From contig JAGMEA010000030.1 in assembly GCA_023128415.1 (NCBI GenBank), positions 263 to 64,262 of the forward strand: 64,000 bases of DNA. The letters run 5' to 3'. Below the pieces are notes generated by a model. That model was not told the DNA's origin and did no database searches. It was given only the letters and a program-made list of their open reading frames with translations. The translations under genes were made by a program, and so were the position numbers. The DNA is from Candidatus Babeliales bacterium. GTDB taxonomy: Bacteria; Babelota; Babeliae; Babelales; UBA12411. Positions 1 through 64,000 of this stretch are shown here, in pieces (the stretch's first letter is position 1; the number at the start of each line of letters is the position of its first letter).

Positions 1-1
1 A

Positions 2-259
2 AATAACAAGGCATATCGAAAACTAATGTTAGTCTATTTTGATGGAACTCATTCAAAAACATTTGAAGCTGTGTGTCCAGGAAAAATAGTACCGCCTAGA
101 AAATCCAAATCTCCTTCTTCATTTCCATGGAATGCCATTTTTATTCCTGATGGTAGTAATAAAACATCTGCTGAGATTTATGGAACCTCTGAAGAGGAAA
201 AATACAATCACAGAACTCAAGCCCTAAAAAATTTCTTAAAATGGTTTTTACAAAAATAA
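2..259 (+). CDS. 3' part of a RdgB/HAM1-like non-canonical purine NTP pyrophosphatase (5' end outside window)
   Basis: The frame is open from nt 2, with no stop before the listed ATG at 26. The C-terminal pattern FIPDGSNKTSAEI..EEKYNHRTQALKNF resembles the family C-terminus (P.G..KT.AEM..EKN..SHR..AL). The usual GFGYDP is divergent here (SFPWNA). Confidence 0.5.
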   Translation, partial: NNKAYRKLMLVYFDGTHSKTFEAVCPGKIVPPRKSKSPSSFPWNAIFIPDGSNKTSAEIYGTSEEEKYNHRTQALKNFLKWFLQK

Positions 260-343
260 TTTTTTTGTAGACATGTATAGTTTGGAATGCTAGAAACATT
301 TAATCACTAAAACAATTTCAAACTACAATTCTAAGAAATTTTT

Positions 344-1387
344 ATGAAAAAATTATACAAAGTTGTGCTGACATTACCGCTATATTTAATGCCTCGACCA
401 CTTTTAAATCTGACAACTGATAAATTCGTCCCTGATATTTATATCACTCATAAATCCGTAGAAGATAAAAAGTTGTTAGAAGAAATAAAACCTTTATTTT
501 TCGAACATTCACCTAAAGAGGCATTTTTAGAAAGACTTACTAGACGATTATCAAAAAAAATTAGTTTCTCTGGAAAAAATCGCAGCTTTGCTATTAGAGA
601 AAAAGCAAAAAAGGAATTTGGAGCTCAAGAACTCTACCTTCCGAGTGAAGATAAATATCTAATTTCATCTCTATATTTTAAAAGAGAAAATGCCCCGCTA
701 AATATTATTTATGTAACCGGATACTTTGAACAAGAAACTCCATTAAAAGAATGGGGAGCCCCTTTCGGAGTACTTTTCCCCGAATTTAATATTTTAACAT
801 TTGACTGGAGAGGATACGGAAATAGTAGTGGTAGTAAAAAACATTTTGGATCAAACGCATATAAAGATATTTTAACTACTATAGATTTTATGAGATCAGA
901 AAATGACAAGCCTATAATTTTGGTTGGTTTTTGTATGGGCGGAGCTTTGAGCCTTTACGCAACGATAAAGGCAAAAGAAGAAAAACGAAACGGTCCAGAT
1001 GCTATTGTATTAAACTGTCCCTTTACAGATTTTTTAAACATTATGCCAAGAGTAGCTCGGGAACCTGGCCTTACACCACTTCAATGGTTAGCATTAAATA
1101 GCAAAGCTATCTTTGATCTAAAATTAAAACAACTGAATGGAAATTTATTAAATCTTAATCCTAAAAAAATGGTTGAAAAGATTGATATCCCTTGTTATAT
1201 CGAACACTCTACGGCAGATAAAATGGTTCCAATAGAAGAAGGCATAAAAATATTTAAAAGTATAAAAACTCCACAAAAAATGTTTATGAAATCAGAAATT
1301 GGGCAACATGTACGCATACACACTTCTGTACCGTATCAATACAGAAATGCTTTTTTAACATTTCTGAAAAAATTTGATTTTTTATAA
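344..1387 (+). CDS. Alpha/beta hydrolase, dienelactone-hydrolase-like (Cys in the nucleophile elbow)
   Basis: 347 aa. FDWRGYGNSSG is followed by the nucleophile elbow VGFCMGG (G-x-C-x-G, as in GYCLGG of dienelactone hydrolase). Later HSTADKMVP and GQHVRIH could supply the Asp and His. Confidence 0.6.
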   Translation: MKKLYKVVLTLPLYLMPRPLLNLTTDKFVPDIYITHKSVEDKKLLEEIKPLFFEHSPKEAFLERLTRRLSKKISFSGKNRSFAIREKAKKEFGAQELYLPSEDKYLISSLYFKRENAPLNIIYVTGYFEQETPLKEWGAPFGVLFPEFNILTFDWRGYGNSSGSKKHFGSNAYKDILTTIDFMRSENDKPIILVGFCMGGALSLYATIKAKEEKRNGPDAIVLNCPFTDFLNIMPRVAREPGLTPLQWLALNSKAIFDLKLKQLNGNLLNLNPKKMVEKIDIPCYIEHSTADKMVPIEEGIKIFKSIKTPQKMFMKSEIGQHVRIHTSVPYQYRNAFLTFLKKFDFL

Positions 1388-1420
1388 ATTAAAAAAGACT
1401 ATTAAATTTCTTAAAATATA

Positions 1421-1457
1421 AACGCCTCCAGTTTTTTATTACAAATCTGGAGGCGTT
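1421..1457. terminator. Bidirectional stem-loop terminator between convergent genes
   Basis: 11-bp GC-rich inverted repeat: aacgcctccag (1421-1431) and ctggaggcgtt (1447-1457). It is flanked by A/T runs on both sides and lies between the + gene ending at 1387 and the - gene ending at 1476. Confidence 0.65.
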
Positions 1458-1475
1458 ATAAATTTTTTAATTAAT

Positions 1476-1913
1476 TTATTCTTCTGTTGATGCTTCGGCT
1501 TCTGCCTCTTCTTCAGCACCTTCTGCTGTTTCTTCGGAAGCTTTAATTTCTTCTGCTACTTCTGCCACAACCTCAACCATTTGAGATAGTTCAAATTCTT
1601 TTAAAACTTCGACTACTTCATCATGGTTATAATATAGTGCTACTTCTAAAGCTGTTTTCTCATGATTATTGTCTCTAATTCTTATATCGGCACCATGTGC
1701 TAATAAATATTTAACTAGCTCTACATGACCAGCTGCTGCTGCGCAATGAAGGGGTGTATAACCATGCCGAGTTGCAACGTTAACGTCTCCGCCATCATTT
1801 AACCAAGCTTCAATAGCTTCAACATTTCCTTTAGAAACTTCTTCATGCACTGCTAAACCCAACAAGCCGGATGAAATAAATAATCCCAACGACAATATAT
1901 AAGCTCTTTTCAT
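1476..1913 (-). CDS. Exported ankyrin-repeat protein with acidic C-terminal tail
   Basis: Ankyrin consensus GYTPLHCAAAAGHVELVKYLLAHGADI. I take the start at the internal Met (MKRAYILSLGLFISSGLLGLA, hydrophobic leader), which is preceded by AAAGGA. The ORF-track start at 1937 is probably too long. The tail is Glu/Ala-rich. Confidence 0.8.
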   Translation of the reverse strand: MKRAYILSLGLFISSGLLGLAVHEEVSKGNVEAIEAWLNDGGDVNVATRHGYTPLHCAAAAGHVELVKYLLAHGADIRIRDNNHEKTALEVALYYNHDEVVEVLKEFELSQMVEVVAEVAEEIKASEETAEGAEEEAEAEASTEE

Positions 1914-1984
1914 TAAAATTCCTTTCTGTAAATACATTTCATAAAATTGGTCGTCAGTGTACTCACAAAATACTGGCTTGTAAA

Positions 1985-2473
1985 CTACTTATTATTTAAA
2001 AATTCCTCTTCTATTTCTTTGACTCTAACAGATATATTTTCTAATAAATCTATCAACTTTTTATTACCCGATTCAATGGCTAAATCTAAAGCTGTTTTAC
2101 CCAAAATATTTTTTGCTAAAGGATTTGCACCCTTCCAAATTAAAAAAACTGCAACTCTATAATTGTTCTCTCTCACGGCCAAGTGCAAAGGTGTATTAAA
2201 AACACAGTTTTTTGAATTAACTTCTGCACCCTTTTCTACAAAAAGTGTTACTAATGGCAAATGCCCAAACTTGGCAGCATAATGCAATGGAGAAGCTAAA
2301 TAAGGCTTATCTTTCTCATTAACATCGTAACCATGCCTACTAATAAGAGCAAAAGCCTTAAAATACGATCCCTCAATAGCAGCCTCGTGCAATTTATTTC
2401 TAAATAATGAAGATTTTAAATTTGCCGAGAGCAATGGTAACACGAGCAAAAGCCCTATTAATAACTTTTTCAT
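1985..2473 (-). CDS. Exported ankyrin-repeat protein
   Basis: N-terminal leader MKKLLIGLLLVLPLLSA. Ankyrin repeats SPLHYAAKFGHLPLVTLFVEKGAEVN, NTPLHLAVRENNYRVAVFLIWKGANP and GKTALDLAIESGNKKLIDLL. AGGAAAGG lies upstream of the ATG. Confidence 0.85.
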   Translation of the reverse strand: MKKLLIGLLLVLPLLSANLKSSLFRNKLHEAAIEGSYFKAFALISRHGYDVNEKDKPYLASPLHYAAKFGHLPLVTLFVEKGAEVNSKNCVFNTPLHLAVRENNYRVAVFLIWKGANPLAKNILGKTALDLAIESGNKKLIDLLENISVRVKEIEEEFLNNK

Positions 2474-2503
2474 ACGCGCCTTTCCTAAATTCTTGAATCA
2501 ATA

Positions 2504-2660
2504 GTGACATCCTCACGGTAATAAATTACCGTGCATCCCAATTCTTAAATTGGAAATCGGCTCCTGCTTCATAGAGCCGACTTGCTTTTTCTTATTAGAA
2601 GAAAAAACCTTGGTCGATCTCTCCACAGGCTTAACTTCGGGTCTGCCCTTCCCTAGGGAC
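2504..2660 (-). ncRNA. Putative omega-RNA (reRNA) scaffold overlapping the 3' end of tnpB
   Basis: By analogy with characterised TnpB elements, the guide RNA scaffold is encoded by the last ~150 nt of tnpB plus the right end. Here the tnpB stop (TGA, 2513-2515) lies only 9 nt from the inferred right end. The extent is a guess and no structure was computed. Confidence 0.3.
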
Positions 2661-3778
2661 GCTCGTGTACGTGACACATTTTGTCCAATTTTTAAAATAT
2701 TTATTGCTGCATTTATGTCTCTGTCATGCATAGAACCACAGAGCTTACATCTCCAAGTTCTATGTTGTAATTTCAGCTCTTTGTTTACAGTTTTACAGGT
2801 ATTGCACATCTTCGAAGACGGTTCAAAGCGTCCTATTTGAACAAACGTTCTACCTCTCCATTCTGCCTTATACTTAATCTGACGTATAAACTCTCCCATA
2901 GCTGTATCTGCTATCGATCTTGCGAGGCAGTGGTTTCTCATCATACCTTTCACATGCAAGTCTTCTGCATAGATTACTTGGTTTTCGTTTATCAATGCAA
3001 AACTTGTCTCGTGAACAAAAGAACTTCTCTTGTTAGCTATTTTCTCATGAATTTTTGCTAACTTTAACTTTGACTTCTCTCTATTATTACTTCCCTTTTT
3101 CTTTCTAGCTAGCGACTTACTAGCTCTAGCCATCTTCTTTAATGACGTCTTCATAAATCTTGGATATAATATTTTTTCTCCATTGCTTGTTGTAACAAAG
3201 CTTGTTATTCCCAGATCTATCCCGATTTTTCCTCTTGCCTCTCCCATGGTCTTGGGTTTGGGAATATCTTCCCTTTTTACATCATACGTAATACTTGCAA
3301 AATATTTTCCCGTATATGTCTTTGTTATTACTATGCGCTTCGATTCGCCTACCAGTTCTCTATGCATTTTAATTTTTATACCAGATTTCAGTTTGGGAAT
3401 GTATAGAAACTTATTGTCCATTTTGGACTTCTTAATCGAAAAATGCTGTGGTATTGTACATGACTGCTTAGAGTTCTTCCTTTTAAATCTAGGCCTACCA
3501 TTTTGCTTTTTAAAAAACCTATCTCGAGATTTTCCTAGATTCAATGCTGCTTCCTGAAGACTTTGTGAATTAATCTCTTTTAGCCATTTCTTAGCAGATT
3601 TTAATTGCGGTATTTCTTTCTTTAGATCATTTATGTGTATTGTTTTCTTTTCTTTTTCGTATATTTCGTTACTTCTCGATAAGAGATAATTGTAAATGAA
3701 TCTTACCCCGCCAAACTGCTTTGCTAGGAACACCTCTTGCTCTTTTGCCGGGTATATTCGAAATTTACAACTCCACAT
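2513..3778 (-). CDS. tnpB: TnpB (IS605 OrfB family RNA-guided endonuclease)
   Basis: 421 aa. The N-terminus MWSCKFRIYPAKEQEVFLAKQFGGVRFIYN is typical of OrfB/TnpB. RuvC-like residues are in IGIDLGI, IYAEDLHV and HDRDINAAINI. The zinc finger is CNTCKT...CKLCGS. The C-terminal tail (KPVERST...GSMKQEP) has the pattern usually imposed by the overlapping omega-RNA. Confidence 0.9.
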   Translation of the reverse strand: MWSCKFRIYPAKEQEVFLAKQFGGVRFIYNYLLSRSNEIYEKEKKTIHINDLKKEIPQLKSAKKWLKEINSQSLQEAALNLGKSRDRFFKKQNGRPRFKRKNSKQSCTIPQHFSIKKSKMDNKFLYIPKLKSGIKIKMHRELVGESKRIVITKTYTGKYFASITYDVKREDIPKPKTMGEARGKIGIDLGITSFVTTSNGEKILYPRFMKTSLKKMARASKSLARKKKGSNNREKSKLKLAKIHEKIANKRSSFVHETSFALINENQVIYAEDLHVKGMMRNHCLARSIADTAMGEFIRQIKYKAEWRGRTFVQIGRFEPSSKMCNTCKTVNKELKLQHRTWRCKLCGSMHDRDINAAINILKIGQNVSRTRASLGKGRPEVKPVERSTKVFSSNKKKQVGSMKQEPISNLRIGMHGNLLP

Positions 3779-3865
3779 TACAATCTCGCCTAGTACAAAA
3801 TTTTACTTTACCTTTTGGTCACGAATATATTTTCTTACTATATTTTCCGATATGTGGTATCCAAT

Positions 3866-3895
3866 ATTATAAACAACAGTTCTATCGTATACCAA
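3866..3895 (-). promoter_or_regulatory. Candidate sigma70-type promoter for tnpB
   Basis: On the minus strand: TTGGTA (3890-3895), an 18-nt spacer, then TATAAT (3866-3871), about 90 nt upstream of the tnpB ATG. The -10 is mutated in the deleted copy (tctatttgat). Confidence 0.3.
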
Positions 3896-3927
3896 ATTAC
3901 TCATACACATACTATAAAAATTATGGG

Positions 3928-3999
3928 GATATGTTACAAGATAAACTTCGTTTAACTTATAACATATCGTCGCTTACATCACGGTTTTTAAAAACCGTG
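3928..3999 (-). repeat. Two subterminal hairpins in the IS left end
   Basis: Hairpin 1 is the perfect 20-nt palindrome cacggtttttaaaaaccgtg (3980-3999). Hairpin 2 has 13-nt arms gatatgttacaag (3928-3940) and cttataacatatc (3956-3968) with one mismatch. That mismatch is a proper pair in the second copy (tttgtaacatatc), i.e. the structure is conserved. Confidence 0.6.
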
Positions 4000-4033
4000 G
4001 ATTGCGCTCCGGATCCTAAAATTACCGATAGAG

Positions 4034-4074
4034 TATATACCTGAATCTTGTAATTAAAAAAGATTGAGAAAGCT
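4034..4074. repeat. Inverted repeat A flanking the fic gene
   Basis: tatatacctgaatcttgtaattaaaaaagattgagaaagct matches the reverse complement of 5461-5504. The identical cores are acctgaatctt and taattaaaaaagattga. Confidence 0.75.
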
Positions 4075-4102
4075 TTCCAGTGGAAGGAAAAGCTTCTTAT
4101 CA

Positions 4103-4126
4103 AAAGTTTAATTATAATTAAACTTT
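4103..4126. repeat. 24-bp perfect palindrome downstream of fic
   Basis: The halves aaagtttaatta and taattaaacttt are exact reverse complements. A second small palindrome, gttat-tacgcg-ataac, follows immediately. Confidence 0.7.
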
Positions 4127-4192
4127 GTTATTACGCGATAACATTTAATTGTTGAAGCCTTTATGAAAAAGGATTGGTTGTTGTTCACTTAT

Positions 4193-5302
4193 CTATTTTG
4201 TTAATTTTTCGTAGGACGGTGTTAATTTATATTTTCGGCTCTTTCGAGAGTAATCTTTGATCATAAGAAAGCCTTCATCTACCCATTTATTACATAAATT
4301 TGAACAGGCTCTGGCTTGAAGGCCAAAAAGCTCTCCAATTTGTTTTGAAGTTATGGTTTCAAATTCTTCAAATAAATCAAGTACTTTCCGCTGCCGAAAA
4401 GTAAGTTTACGTAATAACAAAGGAAGTTTAGTTGAAGAGTTTTGTTTGGTTGCCTTTTCTGCCTGTTTTTTAACATCTTCAAAAACTTGAACCATACCTG
4501 TACAAAAATATTCAATCCAGTTTGTTATATTTGCTTCTTCTCGTCCTAAATAATAGTTATGAGAAGGGCCTGCATTTAAGGCATCATAATAGTCTTCTAA
4601 GTTATTCGCATAGTATTCATCCAGGGAATAAATTCCCTTAAGTCCATATCCTTCTAGATGTAGAATTAGAGTTGCCAATAAACGAGCAACCCTACCATTT
4701 CCATCATAGTATGGGTGAATAGTAACAAACTGATAATGAGCAATGCTCGCGACAATTGGTTGTGGTAGATCTTTATTTTTATTTATCCACCTTACAAAAG
4801 ATTGCATTAAAAACTTTATATCTTTGGTTTCTGGTGGTAAATAAACAATTTTTCCTGTTAATCCATCTCTAATAACGTTTTGTCCATCTCTGTATGGGGT
4901 GGGTTTTACTTTAATTTTTCCATTATTCATAACAAGAGCATGCAAGGTTTGAATAATTTTTTCGTTTATTGTTCTTTTTTCAGAGACACATTGTTCTATA
5001 TAGTCTAAAGCTGCATAATATCCCCTAACTTCGCTGACATCTCTTTCTCTACCAGGAAAGGATTTTTTTTGCTTTAATACAGAGTTAATTTCTTCTTGTG
5101 TAAGTCGATTTCCTTCTATTTTAGTTGAATAGTAAGTCGAAACTAATTTTGCTGCTTTTTGTAAGTTTGATAGTGTTACATAGGGTATCTTGAGATTATC
5201 TATGATATGGCGGCAAATATCTATACGCATTAAAGCATTAGCTATTTTATAGGAAATAGAATAATTAGGTCTAAACTCTTTCGGCGTTTTATCGGCATTC
5301 AT
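4193..5302 (-). CDS. fic: Fic-domain protein (AMPylase-type) with N-terminal inhibitory motif and C-terminal winged-helix-like region
   Basis: Fic motif HPYYDGNGRVARL (HxFx[D/E]GNGRxxR). Inhibitory-helix motif STKIEGN ([S/T]xxxE[G/N]) lies upstream in the same chain. I take the start at the internal ATG 5302 (MNADKTPKEF) because ACGGAGGG lies 9 nt upstream. The ORF-track start at 5371 is probably too long. Confidence 0.85.
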   Translation of the reverse strand: MNADKTPKEFRPNYSISYKIANALMRIDICRHIIDNLKIPYVTLSNLQKAAKLVSTYYSTKIEGNRLTQEEINSVLKQKKSFPGRERDVSEVRGYYAALDYIEQCVSEKRTINEKIIQTLHALVMNNGKIKVKPTPYRDGQNVIRDGLTGKIVYLPPETKDIKFLMQSFVRWINKNKDLPQPIVASIAHYQFVTIHPYYDGNGRVARLLATLILHLEGYGLKGIYSLDEYYANNLEDYYDALNAGPSHNYYLGREEANITNWIEYFCTGMVQVFEDVKKQAEKATKQNSSTKLPLLLRKLTFRQRKVLDLFEEFETITSKQIGELFGLQARACSNLCNKWVDEGFLMIKDYSRKSRKYKLTPSYEKLTK

Positions 5303-5460
5303 CTGGTGGCCCTCCGTGAACCTATATTTACAATATGCCTTTATTATGCCAAGAAAATGCCGATAAGTCAAGAGATGTTTGACTAAATTGTCTACTAGCG
5401 TATAAATTTAGCTTCTGCAACTTTTTATTTTTTATATTTTTTCAAACTTCTTAATAAGAA

Positions 5461-5504
5461 AGCTCTTTCAATCTTTTTTAATTATTAAGATTCAGGTAGT
5501 ATAT
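5461..5504. repeat. Inverted repeat B flanking the fic gene
   Basis: agctctttcaatcttttttaattattaagattcaggtagtatat. Its reverse complement aligns with 4034-4074 at about 40 of 45 positions. Confidence 0.75.
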
Positions 5505-5522
5505 GAAAAATAAACAGCAGGG

Positions 5523-8096
5523 CTAAATTTGTTTTTTTAATTCCCATAAAATATCGAATGCCTTTTTAGGAGAAAGATCATCAAAATTTAAATTTTTTAA
5601 TAAATTTACAAAACCATCCTTTCTCTTTAACTCTTTTTCTAAAATGAAAACTTTTTCTTTCAACACTGAATCTGATTCAACGATATCTGTATGCAAATTT
5701 TTGTCTAAAACTTGGGAACTAGTTTCTAACATATGTAAAATATCACGTGCTCGATTTATCAACCCTGCCGGCATATTTGCCAACTTTGCAACATCTATAC
5801 CAAAACTTCCATTCGAAATACCCTGTTCAATCTTGTGCAAAAATACAATACCATCTTTCTTTTTCTTACACAGCATATGATAATTTTTAATTCCTGAAAA
5901 ATGATCTTTGAGATGAGTAAGCTCATGATAATGTGTAGCAAAAAGGCACTTAGATCCTATTTTCTCATAAATATACTCTATAACCGCTTGAGCAATTGCT
6001 AATCCATCAAATGTTGAAGTCCCTCTGCCAACCTCATCAAGAATTACTAAACTATTTTTAGTTGCATGACGACAAATTATTGAAGTTTCTTCCATCTCTA
6101 CTAAAAAAGTACTCTTTCCCTCTACCAAATTATCACCACTACCAATACGCGTAAAAATACGATCAATAAAAGGTAAGTTTGCTTCTTCTGCTGGAACCAA
6201 ACTCCCACATTGCGCCAAAATAGAAATCAGTGCAACTTGTCTTAGATAAGTAGACTTTCCTCCCATGTTAGGACCAGTAACAATCCACAACAATTCTTTA
6301 GAATTCAAAGTGGTATCATTGGAAACAAAACTGTCCAAACTTGAAGCAACAACTGGATGCTTTCCTCCCCTTATAGAAATTTCACCGGAATCGTTAAAAA
6401 CTGGCTCAATATAATTATTTTCATAAGCAACTTTAGCAAAACTATAAAGCCCATCTAAATACGCCAGTGCCCCGGCACAATGCCTCAAAAAAGAAAGCTT
6501 AGAATGAACTTGATCTTTTATTTGTTGAAAAACTTCTGCTTCTAAAGAACCTATTTCATTTTGCGCTTTAATGATTTCATTTTGTAGAGCAAGTAACTCT
6601 TCAGTAACAAAGCGCTCTCTGTTTGTTAAAGACTGTAAACGCTTATAATATTCTGGAATTTTATCTAAGTGTGTCTTTGTAACTTCAATGACATAACCAC
6701 TAACCTTGTTATAACGAATTTTTAAACTATTAATTCCAGTTTTTTCAATCTCCCTAGCCTCTAAAGCAATTAGTTCTTTTTGTGAATTTTCAACCAAGTT
6801 TCGAATTCTATCTAAGCTGGAATTAAAACCATACTTTACTATGTGACCGCTCGAAGAGCCTTCTTCTAAAGCATTTTCCAAAAGTGTTATTAAGGGATCA
6901 AAATTAATAAACCTGCTCAAAATTATTTTTATCAGATCTAGTTCTAAATATTTGGATAATAGATTTTTTATATAAGGTAAGATTTTAAGAGACTGTTTTA
7001 AGGCAATATAATCCTGAATCGGGGCTTTATATAACCCAATTCTGCCAACAATTCTTTCAAGATCAGAAAGCTCTCCAAGAAGTTCTCCAAGCTTTTGAAT
7101 AATATCAACATTGTTTTTAAAAGTTTTAACAACTTGTAAACGTTGAAGTATCGCTTTTTTTTGTAACAGAGGACGTGTAAGCCACTTAGTTAAAGTTCTA
7201 GATCCCATAGCCGTTTTTGAATGGTCTACAACAGAAAGCAAGGTATTTTTTCTACTACTATCGATGTTATTTCTAACAATCTCTAAATTTTTTTGTGTCG
7301 AAATATCTAAATATAAATAATCATCAGATTCATAAAATTGAATTGTTTTAAATTGTTCTAATGAAAATTTTTGTGTTTTAAATAAATATTGGTGGAATAA
7401 AAGAAGGGCATTTTTTATAACTGTTTTTTCTTTTAATTTTTCATTAATAGAGTTATCAAATGATTTATTAACCCATTGGTCCGAATTTTCTATATCTTGA
7501 AGAAAAGAGTCATTTGTAACCCAATAGCCATTTTTTTTAAAATAGGTCTCAAATTTTTGATCCGAAATAATAACCTCATCTGGAAAAAATCTTGCTAATT
7601 CCGATTCCAAAATTCTAAATTCACCCGCAGGAATAGTTGTTGCAAAAATTTGAGCAGTAAGCAATTCTCCAAAAACCAGCCCCCATTCCTTTTCTGAAGG
7701 ATAAAAGGCAAATAAATATGAAGCAGATTTATCGTCCATCATTTGAGCGTCTGTAAGAGTCCCTGGGGTATATACCCTAGTCACTCCTCTTTCAACAACC
7801 ATACCTGGCTTAGGCTCTGAAAGTTGATCACAAATACCTACTCTAAATCCACCCTTAACAAGTTTCTTAAGGTAATGATTTAAGGCATGTACGGGAATTC
7901 CGCATAGAGGTACGTCTTTGCCTTTGCATTTTCCTCGTTTAGTCAAGGCTATAGCTAAAAAAGCAGAGGCAATCTTTGCATCCTCAAAAAACAACTCATA
8001 AAAATCCCCCACCTGAAAAAATAGAAGAGTACTTGGATACTGCTTGCGAATATTAAAATATTGCTGCATTAGAGGTGTTAATTTTTCATCAGTCAT
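5523..8096 (-). CDS. mutS: DNA mismatch repair protein MutS
   Basis: 857 aa. N-terminal mismatch-binding region TPLMQQY...VGDFYELFFEDA, Walker A TGPNMGGKSTYLRQ, DEVGRGTSTFDG and THYHELT. Confidence 0.95.
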   Translation of the reverse strand: MTDEKLTPLMQQYFNIRKQYPSTLLFFQVGDFYELFFEDAKIASAFLAIALTKRGKCKGKDVPLCGIPVHALNHYLKKLVKGGFRVGICDQLSEPKPGMVVERGVTRVYTPGTLTDAQMMDDKSASYLFAFYPSEKEWGLVFGELLTAQIFATTIPAGEFRILESELARFFPDEVIISDQKFETYFKKNGYWVTNDSFLQDIENSDQWVNKSFDNSINEKLKEKTVIKNALLLFHQYLFKTQKFSLEQFKTIQFYESDDYLYLDISTQKNLEIVRNNIDSSRKNTLLSVVDHSKTAMGSRTLTKWLTRPLLQKKAILQRLQVVKTFKNNVDIIQKLGELLGELSDLERIVGRIGLYKAPIQDYIALKQSLKILPYIKNLLSKYLELDLIKIILSRFINFDPLITLLENALEEGSSSGHIVKYGFNSSLDRIRNLVENSQKELIALEAREIEKTGINSLKIRYNKVSGYVIEVTKTHLDKIPEYYKRLQSLTNRERFVTEELLALQNEIIKAQNEIGSLEAEVFQQIKDQVHSKLSFLRHCAGALAYLDGLYSFAKVAYENNYIEPVFNDSGEISIRGGKHPVVASSLDSFVSNDTTLNSKELLWIVTGPNMGGKSTYLRQVALISILAQCGSLVPAEEANLPFIDRIFTRIGSGDNLVEGKSTFLVEMEETSIICRHATKNSLVILDEVGRGTSTFDGLAIAQAVIEYIYEKIGSKCLFATHYHELTHLKDHFSGIKNYHMLCKKKKDGIVFLHKIEQGISNGSFGIDVAKLANMPAGLINRARDILHMLETSSQVLDKNLHTDIVESDSVLKEKVFILEKELKRKDGFVNLLKNLNFDDLSPKKAFDILWELKKQI

Positions 8097-8732: not shown

Positions 8733-11700
8733 TTATTCTGAGAAAAAATCCCAAGATAATATTGGTTCAACACTATTATAATCCTCAAACAGCGGCTCTG
8801 GAAAAAATATTCCTAAAAACTCAGGGAGAACTATTTTCTCCAACAAATGTAAGGCTGCAGCAAAATCCTCCTTATTGCCCTTCCTGACAACTATATCAGC
8901 ATCTGCATCCTTGAGGATCATTTCTAAGGTAGCAATCATTTTTATAAATAAACGAGCAGAATCTTTCATATTTGGAGTGCCTAAAAATATTTTGGCACTC
9001 CAGGTATTTGAAGAAACTTTTTTAGAATTGTAATATCCATTTTGTTTGGCCTGACTATAAAATCGCTCTCTCTCCCGATGATACTTAGAATTTTTAACTA
9101 ACTTTTCATAAAAGGTTGATGTTGGTAAAACATAATGAGAACCAAATTCTTCTTGATAGCTGTTTATAATATCCGAAAAAATGGATCCTACTCCAAAAAA
9201 TAACTTTCTTTTAACTCTTGGAGCTCCAAACCCAAAAACTCCATGATTTGTTCCATTATTTTCCCAATCTAAACAGTATGGCCTTCCAAGGAATTCTCCC
9301 CAAATCCTATCCCTACCATGAATATGAAATGTGTTATAAGGTAATTGCTTTTTGCCTTCCCATTCAGGAAATAATTTTTGTGCAACATAAACCCTATCAT
9401 AAAATCTATTACTGGAACTGGTTTGTCCAAATTTAACAACCATAGGCGGTACAGCATACTCTTCTTTTAAAAACAAAATGTTAGCTAAAGCGGCATACCA
9501 ATTAGCACGTAATGTTTGAAACAAAGGAGCTAATAAATCAACCTGACGATTATCTATGGGAAAATCATAATTAACCCAAAGACTCTCTCCTGTGCTCAAT
9601 TTCAACATATTATAATGACTCTTAACATTTCCTAGATATGACATAAATTTTTCTGGACCTAAAACAATACCATCCAAATTACTCCAAAGATTCAAAATTC
9701 TATCTCCAACCATGCCACTGAAAAAAATTGCCTGCATTTTGTCAGAAAAAACTTTTAATAATTCAAAAGAAAATTGTTGAACATTTATAAATTCCTTCGT
9801 TAACCCAAACTCCTTATCAAGACTCTCTTTTTCACAAATAAATTTTAATTTAGATTTAGAATCCAAATAATTTTTTACAGACTCATTATTATTTAAATTG
9901 TTTATTTCATCTTTTAATAATTTAGTTATATCTGGTAACGAAAGTCCCTCTAATTTCTCACTAGGACATCTTTCAATTAATTTGAATAATCCATACCTGG
10001 ATAAAATTTCCAACTTAAAAGAATCAAACATAACTTTTTCCAATTCCGGCTTTAATAAGTCAGAATAAAGCTCAGATGCATTAACAAAACTTTTATAAAG
10101 TGAAAAATTTGTTAAAAATTTATCATCTAATAATGACATCTGTTGAAGAAGATAATTAATTCTAATATTTTCCCTGGAAGAACGTGGATACATACTTAAG
10201 AAATCAACAAAAACAACGTTTTCTACTCCATTTGTTTTCAATTTACCAACCAAGTCATCTAAAAAAGTGTCATAGGCTATTGGAAAACGAATCCCTTCAA
10301 AAAATAACATTTGTTCGGATTCCATATTTTTTAAACCATGAGATGCTGCACCTGCTAAAGAACGTAAAATTCTAATATCTGAAATTTTTTCAAAATTGCA
10401 TAAATAATGCTCATTCTTATATTTAAAAGGCAAATAACAACTATCTTTTGCTAACAAAATTAAGTTGCGAACATAAGTTTTTTCTGGTTGCCCTGGATCA
10501 TTAAGAGAAGACGCTAAAAATCCCTCCTTAGAAATAACATTTTTCACTTCATCAAAAGCTTTGTCATATTCATTCAATATTTTGCCGCGATTTCCAAGAA
10601 TAAAATCTTTTATCTCTTTTATTTCTTTTTCAGTCTTTTCGGTTCCAACATCTACATATCCCATGCCATCAGGCTTATATGTAAAATGACTCATTTGAGC
10701 AGGAAGATCTGCAACATAAACCTTGTCATCAAATTTAAAAACGTCTGCCCATTGAGAAGATGAGTTGTCCACTCTTTCGTATTTATCTATACGATCTTCA
10801 TGCTGCATCCAATTCTTAACATTTCCAAGCATGGTTGTTTTGCCAACCCCATCAACAAAGCTATTGAAAACATAAACAGTTTTTTTATTATCCATAGCTT
10901 TAAGATGTCTTGTTGTAAAAATTTTTACAAAATCTTGGGCATTTTTAGTAGCTCCCGCACCTTGGGTTACGCTTTTTTCAATAGGATAAGTAATATCACC
11001 ACCACAATAAAATTTTAAAATTGGAAGATCTGATTTTAAAAGATACTTACCGTAATCTATTGAAAATAAAATATCTTGAGTTGCCGCAACTTGACTACCT
11101 AAAATCATCACACCTTCTTTATACAAATATTCCCAATAATTTATTAAAAAGGAATAAATGCCCTTCCAATTCTTCTTTTTTAAATGCTCTTCTATCTCAA
11201 ACTGAAAGTTTTTCATAGCATCTAGGGTCTGTCTAAAAGAATGCTTTTGAAAAATTTCTCCTAGATTGAAAATTTCAATATTTGCAGGATTAATATGCTC
11301 AAATACAGGCTCCTCATCCTTAAACCAGCGCTTAGAAAATTCATTAAAATCTTTAAAAAGATAACCCGTCATTAAACCAAAAAAGTTATGTAAACTCATA
11401 GACCAACCAACTTTGGTTTTGGTAGCCATCTCATCATCAATAACTTCTTCATCATATTTTGTATAATACGAAGGAAGAGCCCCTCCCTCATATCCACTTA
11501 TTATGAGATGACCTTGTAAATTTAAACCTTCTTGGCTAAAACGATCTCTTAATTGATACAAACTTTTAACGGTTCTATTTAGAATAAATGGATGATATTC
11601 GTGAGTATAACGTCCTTCAGCCTTAAAATCATAATGATTAATACTGCTATCGATAAATTCTTTTGCATCCTTATAATCAGATGAAAAAAGGAAGGCGGAA

Positions 11701-11738
11701 AAAATAAAAGGTAAAATTTTAATATATGTATTCTTCAT
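8733..11738 (-). CDS. Large (1001 aa) protein with N-terminal hydrophobic leader and a Walker-A motif; family unknown
   Basis: Leader MKNTYIKILPFIFSAFLFSS. The Walker A-like VYVFNSFVDGVGKTTMLGN is encoded at 10833-10859. A possible Walker B is VVFVDF. The ATG lies 20 nt inside the upstream gene. It is the last gene of the 4-gene coupled set. Confidence 0.55.
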   Translation of the reverse strand: MKNTYIKILPFIFSAFLFSSDYKDAKEFIDSSINHYDFKAEGRYTHEYHPFILNRTVKSLYQLRDRFSQEGLNLQGHLIISGYEGGALPSYYTKYDEEVIDDEMATKTKVGWSMSLHNFFGLMTGYLFKDFNEFSKRWFKDEEPVFEHINPANIEIFNLGEIFQKHSFRQTLDAMKNFQFEIEEHLKKKNWKGIYSFLINYWEYLYKEGVMILGSQVAATQDILFSIDYGKYLLKSDLPILKFYCGGDITYPIEKSVTQGAGATKNAQDFVKIFTTRHLKAMDNKKTVYVFNSFVDGVGKTTMLGNVKNWMQHEDRIDKYERVDNSSSQWADVFKFDDKVYVADLPAQMSHFTYKPDGMGYVDVGTEKTEKEIKEIKDFILGNRGKILNEYDKAFDEVKNVISKEGFLASSLNDPGQPEKTYVRNLILLAKDSCYLPFKYKNEHYLCNFEKISDIRILRSLAGAASHGLKNMESEQMLFFEGIRFPIAYDTFLDDLVGKLKTNGVENVVFVDFLSMYPRSSRENIRINYLLQQMSLLDDKFLTNFSLYKSFVNASELYSDLLKPELEKVMFDSFKLEILSRYGLFKLIERCPSEKLEGLSLPDITKLLKDEINNLNNNESVKNYLDSKSKLKFICEKESLDKEFGLTKEFINVQQFSFELLKVFSDKMQAIFFSGMVGDRILNLWSNLDGIVLGPEKFMSYLGNVKSHYNMLKLSTGESLWVNYDFPIDNRQVDLLAPLFQTLRANWYAALANILFLKEEYAVPPMVVKFGQTSSSNRFYDRVYVAQKLFPEWEGKKQLPYNTFHIHGRDRIWGEFLGRPYCLDWENNGTNHGVFGFGAPRVKRKLFFGVGSIFSDIINSYQEEFGSHYVLPTSTFYEKLVKNSKYHRERERFYSQAKQNGYYNSKKVSSNTWSAKIFLGTPNMKDSARLFIKMIATLEMILKDADADIVVRKGNKEDFAAALHLLEKIVLPEFLGIFFPEPLFEDYNSVEPILSWDFFSE

Positions 11739-12630
11739 CAGAGTTTTCTTCTGTAAATTTCTTTTTGAGCTCTGCTAATAGCCATTTATTATCCTTGATT
11801 TTCCTCTGGTATTTTTCTTCGTAGAGAGATCCCTGCAATTTTCTCACTGCTATTTCAAGTTCAAAACTGTACTTCACAGCCTGTTTATAATCTTCAAGAT
11901 GAATCCCCTCATTAAACATTCTTACTAAAAAATCACAATGATGTGCATGAAAATCATAAAAACTATCAACACCATGATTTGTCCAATAATTCTTTAAGGA
12001 AATAGATTTATTATCTTTCTTGAACCAAAGGGCAGCTCCTTCAGGAAGAAAAACTTTACCTGTTTTGTTGTCAATCAGGGCTAAAGACAAAAACCTGCTT
12101 AAAGTATGATACTGTTCTAAAATAATTTCCCAGTACTCACCCAACTTAAAACCCTCTGGTTTGTTCTTAAAATAAAACCACGGGGTTTTAGAAACAACAT
12201 CTACAACTTCCAATAAAGCTGCTTCTATTGCAGCTGGACACATAGTAAAAAAATTGTCTGTAATAACTAGTGCTCTAGGATAATAGGTTGCCAAGTATTT
12301 TTTATAAAATTCCTGCCCAACTTCTGGAACAACTTCCATTGTTTTTTTTTCTTCCTGCCGTTCAGTTTTTTTAGCTTTTATAGAATCTAAAAGCTCTCCT
12401 ACTTCTCTTAAAAAATCATCATGCGAAACATCATCACTAAATAAGGATCCCAATCCAGATAAAGGATCTTCGTCAGATTTTTCTTCATACTTGCTATTAC
12501 TTGCTTCTAAATTTTGAGAATCTTTAGAAGTAATGATTGGATCCTTTTTTCCCCACTTTTCACACCATGAACATGGATTAAGCGAAGCATTTAATAAGAA
12601 GAATAGAATAAGGGCTTTTTGAAATTTCAT
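11719..12630 (-). CDS. Hypothetical exported protein (about 303 aa)
   Basis: I take the start at the second Met (MKFQKALILFFLLNASL), whose ATG forms an ATGA overlap with the stop of the upstream gene (12627-12630). It has an acidic, low-complexity N-terminal third and no recognisable motif. Confidence 0.55.
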   Translation of the reverse strand: MKFQKALILFFLLNASLNPCSWCEKWGKKDPIITSKDSQNLEASNSKYEEKSDEDPLSGLGSLFSDDVSHDDFLREVGELLDSIKAKKTERQEEKKTMEVVPEVGQEFYKKYLATYYPRALVITDNFFTMCPAAIEAALLEVVDVVSKTPWFYFKNKPEGFKLGEYWEIILEQYHTLSRFLSLALIDNKTGKVFLPEGAALWFKKDNKSISLKNYWTNHGVDSFYDFHAHHCDFLVRMFNEGIHLEDYKQAVKYSFELEIAVRKLQGSLYEEKYQRKIKDNKWLLAELKKKFTEENSDEEYIY

Positions 12631-13547
12631 GCAAAAGAAATCTCGCAATTATCCCAAACACTTTTAATAGAATTTAATAAACGTTTTAGCTCCAATCCTA
12701 TTTCTTTCAAATCTGTAAATTCTGAACCATTCTCGTTCTGTTTCAACTTTTTCTCAACTGCAATATTTAGTTTTTCAACAGCAACAAAAATTTTATTATG
12801 AGAATTAGTCAGCCAATTTTCTTGAATTGTTTTATTTTTTATGTGCGCCGTAGAAGCCAATACTGCTAAAAAATGCTCAATAGAGGAAATCAAAATATTG
12901 TGACATTCTACAATTTGTTTTTTATGAAATTCTCTATCTGAGAGTGTACCCATGGGCTCTATTAGGTTTTCGACAAACAAACCTAAATTATCCCCATTAT
13001 TAAAAATTTGCTCACCATAAAACAATGTGTTATCACGGATACTGAATAGGTTTTTTGTTACTTTTAAACCCTTCGCTAGCTCTTTTTTAAATACTACAAA
13101 AACAGCTCCTGATAGGGATACAGCACTACCCAACAATATAGAATCATAAAAATATGAAAGGAATTTTTGAAATTTAGACTTATTCTCAAATTCTTCTTCC
13201 TTCTTCAATATTCTGTCTAATAACCTATTCTTTAGATCCTCATCTGAGGTTGTTTTTTCTGTGGCCAATTTAGAAGAATCAGGAATAACCCTATCCTCCT
13301 GCACAAAACCTTCAAAAAGCATTTTTTTTAATACTATTGAAGCAATTATAGCCCCAGATAAAAGAGCACCGATCTTTAAAAATTTAATATTTCGGTTTTT
13401 TTTAAGGTATTCAGACTTATACCTTTCAATGGAAGAAATACTTAATGTATTTAAATTATACTCTTCTGGCCTAAGAGAGAACACAAACATTTGTACAATA
13501 CTAAAAAGTACTAAAATCCGTTTCCATTTTTTTATAATGTACATCAT
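12627..13547 (-). CDS. Hypothetical membrane protein (about 3 hydrophobic segments)
   Basis: The ORF track starts at a GTG (13586). I prefer ATG 13547 (MMYIIKKWKRILVLFSIVQMFVF), which is preceded by CAGGGA. Hydrophobic segments: IGALLSGAIIASIVL and ILLGSAVSLSGAVFVVF. No recognisable motif. Confidence 0.5.
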   Translation of the reverse strand: MMYIIKKWKRILVLFSIVQMFVFSLRPEEYNLNTLSISSIERYKSEYLKKNRNIKFLKIGALLSGAIIASIVLKKMLFEGFVQEDRVIPDSSKLATEKTTSDEDLKNRLLDRILKKEEEFENKSKFQKFLSYFYDSILLGSAVSLSGAVFVVFKKELAKGLKVTKNLFSIRDNTLFYGEQIFNNGDNLGLFVENLIEPMGTLSDREFHKKQIVECHNILISSIEHFLAVLASTAHIKNKTIQENWLTNSHNKIFVAVEKLNIAVEKKLKQNENGSEFTDLKEIGLELKRLLNSIKSVWDNCEISFA

Positions 13548-13572
13548 ATTGCTGCCATCCCTGAAGTCAAAA

Positions 13573-14994
13573 TCAATAATTTTCACCTAAACCACCGTTC
13601 CAGGAATCCATCATAGAATGCCTGTTAAGTTTTTGTGGTTCTTTTTCTGTCTTTTCTTTATTATCATCGGATTTTTTATATGAAATATATTTAAGCAAAT
13701 TCTCACAATTCTTTTTAAAACTGCTTCTAAGCCGTTTTAAACGACCTTCCACCCTAGACGTACCAAGATCCTCAAAAGATTTAGCTTTATAAAGAAGTGA
13801 AGCAAATTCTTTAAGGGAATCCCTGATCATAACCCCAAAGCGATATTCCATAGAATTCTTATTTTTAGAATAATACGAAACTCCACTATCAAAATAAGCA
13901 ATTATTAATGATAATTCTTTTAGCCTCAAATTTCGTTCTTCACGCCAATCTGAATCAGCTTGAATAAAATCAAGCAAGTCTGTAAAACAAGCAATCTCTG
14001 CTTCATCTTCTAAAGTTATCTCAATATCGAAAGACTTTTCTACTTCTCTAAAAATTTGCGATTTTGAGACACCATCTATACCAAGCTCAGTAAAACCTGA
14101 ATGCTTTTTAAGATGTGAGCCAATTTTTATATTAATACCAACTTTATTGAAGACAATCTCATCCACTTTTTCTAAAACGTCTGGAGCTTCATGCTTTTGA
14201 GCACGCTCAATATAGTCTCGAGCACCTAAGCTCTTAGCACCCTTTAATGTTTCTAGATAACCATCAATTATACCAAAAACAACTTGGTTTAAATCGTCCA
14301 CGCATAGATAATCAAATGGGGACCCATCAACCCCAGAAACTAACCGAACGAATCCTATTTTAAGATTAAAAAGAACGTTGCCAATAACACCAATAGTCCA
14401 ATCTGCCAGTCTTTCAAGAGGAATTCCAACACTATTTTGAATAATACTGTCTATTGGCTTTCCTAAAGCAGTAACTGATTTTCCTACTAATCCATAACCG
14501 ACCATTCGCAAAGTTTTACTCGGCTTCTTAGGTTTTTTTGGGTTAGAGGAATCTTGAGATTCAGCTTTATTATCTTCTTTAGGATCTTCACCATCAAAAT
14601 CATCCCATAGGCCTAAATTTTCCAAATCGTTGAACGTATCATGACCCAAAAATGAAATCGCCGCTATTTTACCTAAGGCTCCAGATGATAATTTTGCTAA
14701 TCTACTATATTCCAACTTCAACTTTTCCTCAGTTTTCTCAATACTTTGGGCAAGCTCTTTATCATCTTTTCTTTGTTTTTGTTTATGGTAAAGATCACTT
14801 ATTTCATTTTCAAGATCAAATATTCTGGTTTTTATCATATTACGAAGAGAATTTCGTTCAAGTGAATGACTATCGCCAAGTGCTCGCCTTAGTAAAATAG
14901 AATCTGTCCTTCCAATCCCAAACAAAGAATTGCCTATAAATAAAGAAGTCGTAGAAAAAATACTTATCAATATGAGTAATTTATATTTAGACAT
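13573..14994 (-). CDS. Hypothetical exported protein containing an acyl-carrier-protein-like domain lacking the Ser attachment site
   Basis: Leader MSKYKLLILISIFSTTSLFIG and a coiled-coil/charged N-terminal part. Residues ~272-346, VLEKVDEIVFNKVGI...FTELGIDGVSKSQIFREVEKSFDIEITLEDEAEIACFTDLLDFI, follow the ACP/PCP four-helix pattern (..F.EDLGADSLD.VELVMALEEEF..EI.DEEAEKI.T...AIDYI) but have DGV instead of DSL. Confidence 0.5.
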   Translation of the reverse strand: MSKYKLLILISIFSTTSLFIGNSLFGIGRTDSILLRRALGDSHSLERNSLRNMIKTRIFDLENEISDLYHKQKQRKDDKELAQSIEKTEEKLKLEYSRLAKLSSGALGKIAAISFLGHDTFNDLENLGLWDDFDGEDPKEDNKAESQDSSNPKKPKKPSKTLRMVGYGLVGKSVTALGKPIDSIIQNSVGIPLERLADWTIGVIGNVLFNLKIGFVRLVSGVDGSPFDYLCVDDLNQVVFGIIDGYLETLKGAKSLGARDYIERAQKHEAPDVLEKVDEIVFNKVGINIKIGSHLKKHSGFTELGIDGVSKSQIFREVEKSFDIEITLEDEAEIACFTDLLDFIQADSDWREERNLRLKELSLIIAYFDSGVSYYSKNKNSMEYRFGVMIRDSLKEFASLLYKAKSFEDLGTSRVEGRLKRLRSSFKKNCENLLKYISYKKSDDNKEKTEKEPQKLNRHSMMDSWNGGLGENY

Positions 14995-63403: not shown

Positions 63404-64000
63404 TTAGTTGCCCCTATATATATAAAAGAACATACAAAATATGACATAACCGGCAAGGGCTCGCAAACAATTTAAAACTATCGGCAAGGAAAGCTCTATG
63501 AAGAAGGCAGCTATGAACTCAATTAAAACACCAACTGCAAAAAAAGTAATAAAGGCAAAACTAAATCCCCTAGTAGATTTCTGAACATATATTTTAAGAA
63601 TTTGAGGAATCATATAAATAAGCCAAATGAAAGTATAAACCCAACCACAAATCTCAGATACTTTTTCTGGATATTTTAAGGCCAAAGGAAAGATCAAGGC
63701 CCCGATAAAACCGATAAGTAGAGATAAGTAACAAAAATACCTCCTATGACTACATCCGTCATAGTAAAAGCTTTGTAAGATCATAAAAATACTGGTGCTA
63801 AAACCCAATGGGACCATAACTTGGTAGGCTGCTGGAAAACTTTCAAGATATATATGGTACCAATACAGGACATAACCAAAAGTTGCACCTAAAAGCATCC
63901 AATTGCTAAGACCTTTAGTTGTTTTTAGCTTATAATTAAGGAATATTTGAGGAAACATTCCGGTGAGATAAATACTATTAACAATCCATACACTAAAATA
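63404..64000 (-). CDS. 7-TM PQ-loop repeat protein, tandem copy 1 (5' end outside window)
   Basis: The frame stays open upstream of the listed Met to the window edge (..YFSVWIVNSIYLTGMFPQIFLNYKLKTTKGLS), matching TM1 of the paralogs. The second motif is IPQILKIYVQKSTRGFSF. Confidence 0.7.
   Translation of the reverse strand, partial: YFSVWIVNSIYLTGMFPQIFLNYKLKTTKGLSNWMLLGATFGYVLYWYHIYLESFPAAYQVMVPLGFSTSIFMILQSFYYDGCSHRRYFCYLSLLIGFIGALIFPLALKYPEKVSEICGWVYTFIWLIYMIPQILKIYVQKSTRGFSFAFITFFAVGVLIEFIAAFFIELSLPIVLNCLRALAGYVIFCMFFYIYRGN

Follow-up and report, generated by a model that had tools for sequence, protein, structure and literature searches.

How did a fic gene come to stand alone, between two matching inverted repeats, next to mutS in the chromosome of an uncultured, amoeba-associated Candidatus Babeliales bacterium? 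The question is raised by a 64,000-nt stretch of contig JAGMEA010000030.1 (GenBank assembly GCA_023128415.1), referred to here as the window, in which the segment 4038–5498 (1,461 bp) carries fic between two repeat arms spaced 1.4 kb apart. Mobile insertion cassettes (MICs) are passenger modules that lack a transposase and have imperfect terminal inverted repeats. Our tentative answer, to which we give slightly less than an even chance, is that the segment is such a cassette or the fossil of one, carrying a self-regulated class II fic gene, and that it was inserted recently or flipped in place. The features on which this answer draws are as follows.

4038–4077, plus strand: arm A, 40 nt, TACCTGAATCTTGTAATTAAAAAAGATTGAGAAAGCTTTC, with outer tip TACCTG
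5458–5498, minus strand: arm B, 41 nt, reverse complement TACCTGAATCTTAATAATTAAAAAAGATTGAAAGAGCTTTC
4193–5302, minus strand: fic, encoding a protein of 369 aa (Pfam Fic, E = 1e-17)
4033–4037: GTATA, left copy, directly outside arm A
5499–5503: GTATA, right copy, directly outside arm B

Aligned with each other, arms A and B are identical in 37 of 41 columns (90%), with one indel and three mismatches, and their longest identical blocks are 12 and 17 nt. An earlier first-pass annotation, made from the sequence alone, had put the identity at about 40 of 45 positions, which agrees with the 41 of 46 columns obtained when its TATA extension is included; the identical blocks that it described are also present, at the refined lengths given above. 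The match is far above chance, as a 35-mer from arm A, allowed up to three mismatches, had no matches in 100 shuffles. A profile built from both arms and searched with nhmmer recovered them at E = 2e-15 and 4e-15, and the next best site in the window had E = 1.5; the arms are the sole two copies within the 64 kb, with no degenerate copies. The two arms are related by descent. Each contains the small palindrome noted in the first pass, but when folded as DNA it is weak (–2.8 and –3.3 kcal/mol, z of about –1.2), so that what the arms share is sequence rather than structure. The half-sites of this palindrome (AATCTT/AAGATT) are 10 nt apart in arm A and 11 nt apart in arm B; counting one further base pair reduces these distances to 9 and 10 nt. 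The outer tip of arm B lies 24 nt from the mutS stop codon. An Rfam scan of positions 2300–5700 returned nothing at the arms, and a literature search for the tip sequence gave only unrelated primer matches.

Between the arms, fic is the only open reading frame (ORF) with a protein-family match, and no transposase is encoded inside the unit; ORF and protein-family scans thus confirm that the arms enclose fic alone. The predicted protein carries the inhibitory motif STKIEG and the active site HPYYDGNGRVAR, and belongs to the class II Fic proteins. Both the HxFx(D/E)GNGRxxR motif and the N-terminal inhibitory motif (S/T)xxxE(G/N) are present, and the self-inhibitory motif is intact, as had been proposed.

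Outside the arms, GTATA forms a direct repeat that abuts both TACCTG tips when the arms are taken in register. We estimate the chance of a match at five of five positions at about 0.002 at this base composition, and at about 0.01 when the choice of boundary is allowed for. An equally good reading of these letters is that the inverted repeat itself runs on by TATA, with a 1-nt indel. Looking for target-site duplications, as the first pass had advised, therefore yielded a 5-bp candidate at both arms that has two readings, and as a target duplication the GTATA pair is suggestive only.

The surroundings are chromosomal: the window includes mutS, ftsZ, ftsA, genes for ATP synthase, RF-1, a class Ib aminoacyl-tRNA synthetase and PPDK, and three tRNA genes. 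A search of 5.8 billion proteins gave 67% identity for the closest MutS, which lies on a contig (L120) that is syntenic with the window on both sides of the gene, through orf473, orf319, orf309, orf1001 and a small opposite-strand ORF up to mutS, and through an ankyrin gene, tnpB and an alpha/beta hydrolase gene beyond it. Directly after mutS, L120 has a convergent glutaredoxin gene in place of fic, with no fic and no copy of the repeat. The comparison of loci with and without the unit that had been suggested earlier thus found fic absent from a syntenic site, in a relative whose MutS shares only 67% identity; an empty site did not turn up.

Species-representative genomes yielded a set of Dependentiae-type mutS loci, of which L045 alone carries fic after mutS, and this fic is of an unrelated, 257-aa type. 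In that locus (positions 9968–13385, TM6 genome GW2011_GWE2_41_16) the fic gene product is 30% identical to ours, and the gene begins about 20 nt past mutS in the same orientation; it is a second, independent mutS-fic adjacency in the phylum. The closest Fic homologue overall is 62% identical, and members of the family occur in Chlamydiae, Dependentiae, Proteobacteria and Verrucomicrobia. Flanking inverted repeats were sought at five fic homologue loci (55–62% identity), and none were found. Together, the absence of fic from the L120 site and the homologues without repeats indicate that fic is accessory here and that the arms are locus-specific. As an accessory insertion, the unit separates mutS from the ankyrin and insertion sequence (IS) region of the chromosome. 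One homologue, 57% identical (L117, positions 1–6089), sits among genes for a terminase, a ParB-like methylase, DUF932 and DUF6900, a context that puts this Fic subfamily on an element resembling a phage or plasmid.

The most informative result comes from base composition. Skews were computed at third codon positions of the coding strand, gene by gene across the window, which has a very strong replication-type strand asymmetry.

Minus-strand genes (n = 36): GC3 skew +0.30 ± 0.12, AT3 skew –0.17
Plus-strand genes (n = 12): GC3 skew –0.18 ± 0.14, AT3 skew +0.13
fic (minus strand): GC3 skew –0.15, AT3 skew +0.07

The fic gene is on the leading strand, yet its third-position skews are those of lagging-strand genes. 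Relative to its own strand class it deviates by z = –3.7 (GC3) and +2.4 (AT3), with a binomial p of 2.5e-5, and it is the most extreme of 38 minus-strand genes; relative to the plus-strand class the values are z = +0.24 (GC3) and –0.67 (AT3). Four-fold degenerate sites are skewed in the same direction. The GC3 of fic (0.22) and its codon usage are native to the host. The skew is no property of the family, since homologues in other genomes have values between –0.13 and +0.22. The opposite-strand composition argues for a recent insertion or inversion, and the simplest reading is that fic spent most of its history in this type of genome on the other replication strand and was then recently turned or moved. 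The fic unit is accessory, bounded by repeats and compositionally out of place. Elsewhere in the window, the minus-strand gene 63404–63958 has an opposite-type GC3 skew of –0.10 and may be another relocated gene.

Further copies of the repeat, or an element with the same ends, were sought widely. In viral contigs, a loose 18-base pattern of the repeat gave 25 matches, all unrelated on inspection, and two further pattern scans gave none and one unrelated match. A 23-base core had no matches in genome_contigs, a collection with one genome per GTDB species that excludes the source metagenome-assembled genome (MAG), and a 22-base core had two unrelated matches in metagenome_contigs (JGI metagenomes), where the source genome is absent too. 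When arm A and its flank were compared with plasmids and phages by BLAST, no match had an E value below 0.5. Searched with the nhmmer profile, a further 1.6 Mb of retrieved loci gave no significant match, and the L120 locus no copy. The first pass had asked for more copies of its 42-mer, in the genome and in relatives, and had named a widespread, REP-like intergenic repeat as the outcome that would speak against a cassette. No further copies turned up in the window, the other loci, L120 or the searched DNA collections, outside of which the source genome lies, and a widespread repeat was not seen in the 64 kb window, the 1.6 Mb or the L120 locus.

Exact-protein look-ups of Fic, TnpB and MutS returned only this contig and a second assembly of the sample, and no variants in orientation or with an empty site. 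The identical Fic protein occurs only on DAOWJI010000025.1 (GCA_030640465.1, a Candidatus Babeliales MAG, Dependentiae/TM6) and in the second assembly of that sample. The two assemblies are identical across the whole unit and have it in one orientation, the second ending within the neighboring IS. An assembly artefact as the source of the unit was rejected, since the two assemblies agree.

As in a MIC, a pair of terminal inverted repeats here encloses a passenger gene without a transposase. MICs that carry effectors and have 5-bp duplications are known, for example those related to TnXax1 that bear genes for transcription activator-like (TALE) and other effectors in Xanthomonas (PMC4337579). 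The unit resembles these, and MIC231 of Bacillus cereus, in its terminal inverted repeats of a few tens of base pairs, its lack of a transposase, its single passenger gene from a family that includes effectors and toxins, its possible 5-bp duplication and its IS-like size of 1.46 kb. It differs in that the searches gave no second copy and no cognate autonomous element is known to share its ends, in its TACCTG tips, which are not the GGGG/GAGGG of the Tn3 family, and in its host, an uncultured Dependentiae symbiont. We infer that a transposase, encoded elsewhere in this or a former genome, acted on the arms, binding them and cutting at the TACCTG tips. Insertion with a 5-bp staggered cut would then have produced the GTATA duplication, and the pre-insertion site would have been ...AGAGTATA joined to TGAAAAAT... 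The unit would have arrived, or flipped by way of its own arms, too recently for strand-specific mutation pressure to have re-equilibrated its composition.

For the non-autonomous fic cassette proposed in the first pass, then, speak the absence of a transposase inside the unit, the absence of fic from L120, the possible 5-bp duplication and the opposite-strand composition; missing are further copies, an autonomous element with the same ends and an empty site. Several observations weigh against the cassette. Neither a third arm nor an element sharing these ends turned up in the window, the public collections, the 1.6 Mb of other loci or the L120 locus. The scanned large ORFs of the window, among which the 184-aa ORF 63404–63958 was left out, encode no DDE transposase or recombinase domain besides TnpB. 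The TACCTG tips do not fit the Tn3-family GGGG/GAGGG rule, and they could be assigned to no IS family. The closest fic homologue, at 62% identity, is without flanking repeats, so the cassette has not been seen in a second context, and since L120 is distant (67% identity in MutS), ordinary gene turnover could also account for the lack of fic there. The duplication is ambiguous, GTATAC being palindromic and the region rich in TATA. Finally, a two-change-point fit of G versus C along 2513–8096 is best at 3983–5576, near the arms, which favors the cassette, but its support interval is broad.

What the arms enclose also bears on whether they might serve fic as regulatory sites. Around the gene we found the following elements.

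5343–5371, minus strand: fic promoter, TTGACT–17 nt–CATAAT with a TG extension, near-consensus and sigma-70-type
Within 5343–5371, minus strand: operator half-sites TTATCGGCAT and TTCTTGGCAT, which pair with those in the first codons
5277–5298, minus strand: inverted operator half-sites ATGCCGATAA and AACGCCGAAAGA, in the first fic codons just past the ATG
4066–4126, minus strand: double hairpin 3' of fic, DNA fold z = –4.2

The double hairpin is likely the fic terminator region. Its first hairpin is a perfect 24-nt palindrome between the fic stop codon and arm A (4103–4126, AAAGTTTAATTATAATTAAACTTT), and its second (4066–4097) is followed by CAATCTTTTTT inside arm A, which supplies both the last stem half (its inner 12–14 nt are the 3' half of the second hairpin) and the T-run. 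The arms thus bound a self-contained expression unit comprising fic, its own sigma-70-type promoter, an operator and 3' hairpins.

The operator is part of a layout common to six fic loci from distant bacteria (the window, L111, L112, L113, L114 and L117), in which two direct TTATCGGCA half-sites, 11 nt apart in the promoter spacer, are followed 20–55 nt downstream by two or three inverted TGCCGATAA half-sites that reach the start codon. Its positions are listed below.

Window: 5277–5371, minus strand
L111: 1680–1775
L112: 3925–3990
L113, L114 and L117: about 2430–2515

The half-sites covary between the two sides, L113 having TTATCTGCA with TGCAGATAA and L112 having TTAACGGCA with TGCCGTTAA. 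In Yersinia pseudotuberculosis, CccR, a Fic protein and toxin with a helix-turn-helix (HTH) domain, represses its own promoter through a split palindrome (PMC9755527). By analogy, the TTATCGGCA/TGCCGATAA operator probably reflects autorepression by a C-terminal HTH domain of Fic. Such an HTH-like tail may be expected from the length of the protein, the conserved operator and a weak match to the sigma-70 (ECF) superfamily (E = 9e-4); among PDB sequences, the protein matches FICD, CccR (7xux, E = 1e-15) and SoFic. CccR and the window protein are both of class II, with the inhibitory SxxxEG at about residue 59 and a tail at the C-terminus that binds DNA (predicted for the window protein), and the split palindrome of CccR likewise lies around the –35 and –10 boxes of its own promoter. 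The two differ in half-site sequence (TTATCGGCA here) and spacing, and no type VI secretion system context is seen around the window fic. This likeness concerns the passenger gene and its operator, not the arms, which bear no resemblance to TTATCGGCA or TGCCGATAA. The first pass had offered, as its alternative, that the arms are a paired protein-binding site controlling fic, possibly for a C-terminal winged HTH (wHTH) domain of Fic. That proposal finds no support here: with a different, covarying operator at the promoters of six fic loci, the arms are improbable as a site for the wHTH domain.

The opposite-strand skew of fic is predicted by transposition and equally by recombination between the arms. 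The segment could accordingly be invertible in place, with homologous (RecA-type) or site-specific recombination flipping fic at a fixed site without transposition, which would alter its orientation relative to mutS read-through and to replication. The wrong-strand composition is exactly what a recent flip predicts, and GC3 and codon usage, both native, point to a gene long resident in this genome. There is also a precedent in another intracellular bacterium, as ectopic recombination between 23-bp terminal repeats has inverted ISWpi1 in Wolbachia (PMC3004938). Both cases have a short inverted-repeat pair around a unit of about 1 kb in an intracellular bacterium, and the opposite-strand signature is that expected of a flip; in ours, however, inversion is read from composition rather than from a comparison of strains, and the arms are non-identical, whereas the Wolbachia repeats were made identical by gene conversion. 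Inverted repeats are present, as an invertible switch needs, but the same ORF scan, again without the 184-aa ORF 63404–63958, found no invertase or recombinase domain, and the two assemblies of the sample show one orientation. The longest identical block in the arms, at 17 nt, is poor for homologous recombination, and arm centres of unequal length cannot accommodate a fixed crossover spacer. With its own promoter, fic is no obvious candidate for an expression switch. Inversion also leaves the origin of the arms unexplained, and it is compatible with a transposon origin rather than exclusive of it. On balance, we consider flipping without transposition unlikely. Somewhat less likely again is that the arms belong to a dispersed family of short intergenic repeats (REP- or MITE-like, or bound by a host protein), two members of which flank fic by accident. 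AT-rich, reduced symbiont genomes often carry short intergenic repeats, each arm has a small internal palindrome, and the arm searches left the rest of the source genome uncovered. Such a repeat would nevertheless have only two copies among the roughly 50 intergenic gaps of the 64 kb, both of them flanking fic in inverted orientation, for which we estimate a chance of about 2%. Degenerate copies are lacking in the window (next best E = 1.5), as are any copies in the 1.6 Mb of other loci, L120 and the public collections; the internal hairpin is unstable (z of about –1.2), and the aberrant strand composition of fic is left unexplained.

The arms might also be paired regulatory or insulating elements, acting as outward terminators, as a long-range RNA duplex processed by RNase III (in a mutS-fic read-through transcript, with arm B 5' and arm A 3') or as operators for the wHTH domain. 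In the outward direction, each arm comes after a hairpin and provides CAATCTTTTTTAATT; the significant double hairpin 3' of fic (z = –4.2) extends into arm A, and past mutS there is no canonical terminator, which makes read-through into arm B plausible. A terminator scan, however, finds none at either arm, the T-run starts about 7 nt beyond the stem, and independent terminators need not share 37 of 41 bases. On the arm B side, the fold of the transcribed strand is no better than that of shuffles (z = –0.8). The likely wHTH operator is the different, covarying promoter motif, for which CccR is the precedent (PMC9755527), and five homologous fic loci are without such flanking repeats. Of these rival readings, regulatory arms seem to us the least probable. 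Only marginally better is the chance that the arms are the ends of an undescribed Dependentiae lineage of transposons or ISs that moves self-regulated, single host-interaction genes, or else form a true fic-flipping switch between orientations co-directional with and head-on to replication and mutS read-through; a dispersed repeat is a shade more probable than either.

Some more specific identities were considered and rejected. An intrinsic terminator pair does not fit, since a consensus scan found none at the arms and the hairpin by arm A ends about 7 nt before the T-run. REP, REPIN and BIME sequences are, like the arms, short intergenic repeats that contain palindromes, but the arms are not abundant (two copies in 64 kb), do not form stable hairpins (z of about –1.2) and lie 1.4 kb rather than <100 nt apart. 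Modules of the Xer/dif type (pdif) are bounded by inverted sites of this general kind, in which 11-nt arms surround a fixed centre of 6–8 nt; our arms have unequal centres, their half-sites being 9 and 10 nt apart. The end of a Tn3-family element (TIME/MIC) would agree with the length of 40–41 bp (about 38 bp expected) and with the possible 5-bp repeat, but the tip TACCTG is wrong under the rule of GGGG or GAGGG (PMC4337579).

Beyond arm A lies a second mobile element.

2475–4022, minus strand: TnpB-only element of the IS200/IS605 type, with tnpB at 2513–3778, outside the cassette

Its left end at 4022 is 15 nt from the TACCTG tip of arm A. The first pass had started arm A at 4034, 11 nt from the IS, and this spacing holds, with the boundary at 4022 confirmed by another copy of the left end, truncated and at 31338–31803, where similarity stops at 31803. 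As this copy fixes the boundary, arm A is not in the IS, and the idea that the arms belong to the TnpB element was rejected. In our view, the TnpB element entered this permissive gap independently of the fic unit.

Further observations concern this element itself. It has CACGG...CCGTG hairpins at both ends. The truncated copy comprises the left end and about the first 75 codons of tnpB, and adjoins a glycosyltransferase gene; that the second assembly breaks inside the IS suggests several IS copies in the genome. A sub-threshold Rfam match to RAGATH-18 (2561–2629, minus strand, 26.9 bits, E = 0.044) falls within the 3' end of tnpB, the expected place for a TnpB guide-RNA scaffold. In L120, a tnpB at 13405–14616 is 41% identical to the window tnpB (2513–3778) and is likewise found between mutS and the alpha/beta hydrolase gene, but with the ankyrin gene on its opposite side. 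The presence of tnpB near mutS in both may mean either that they share a hot spot for insertion or that the element is a long-standing resident. Separately, a large hypothetical protein gene (ORF 17859–20498) contains a 42-nt (14-codon) tandem repeat at 19132–19383, and a related unit is present at 28759–28803 in ORF 27486–28970.

How Dependentiae, which are uncultured and live as intracellular symbionts of protists, acquire and move genes for interaction with their hosts is poorly understood. The kind of element proposed here is already known, and a single occurrence, with no partner transposase found, makes the fic unit a plausible example rather than a discovery. On the practical side, where replication-strand bias is strong, third-position skew can expose a recently flipped or inserted gene without a genome for comparison. 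If the cassette is real, effector-type genes in Dependentiae would move as MICs, as TALE effectors do in Xanthomonas.

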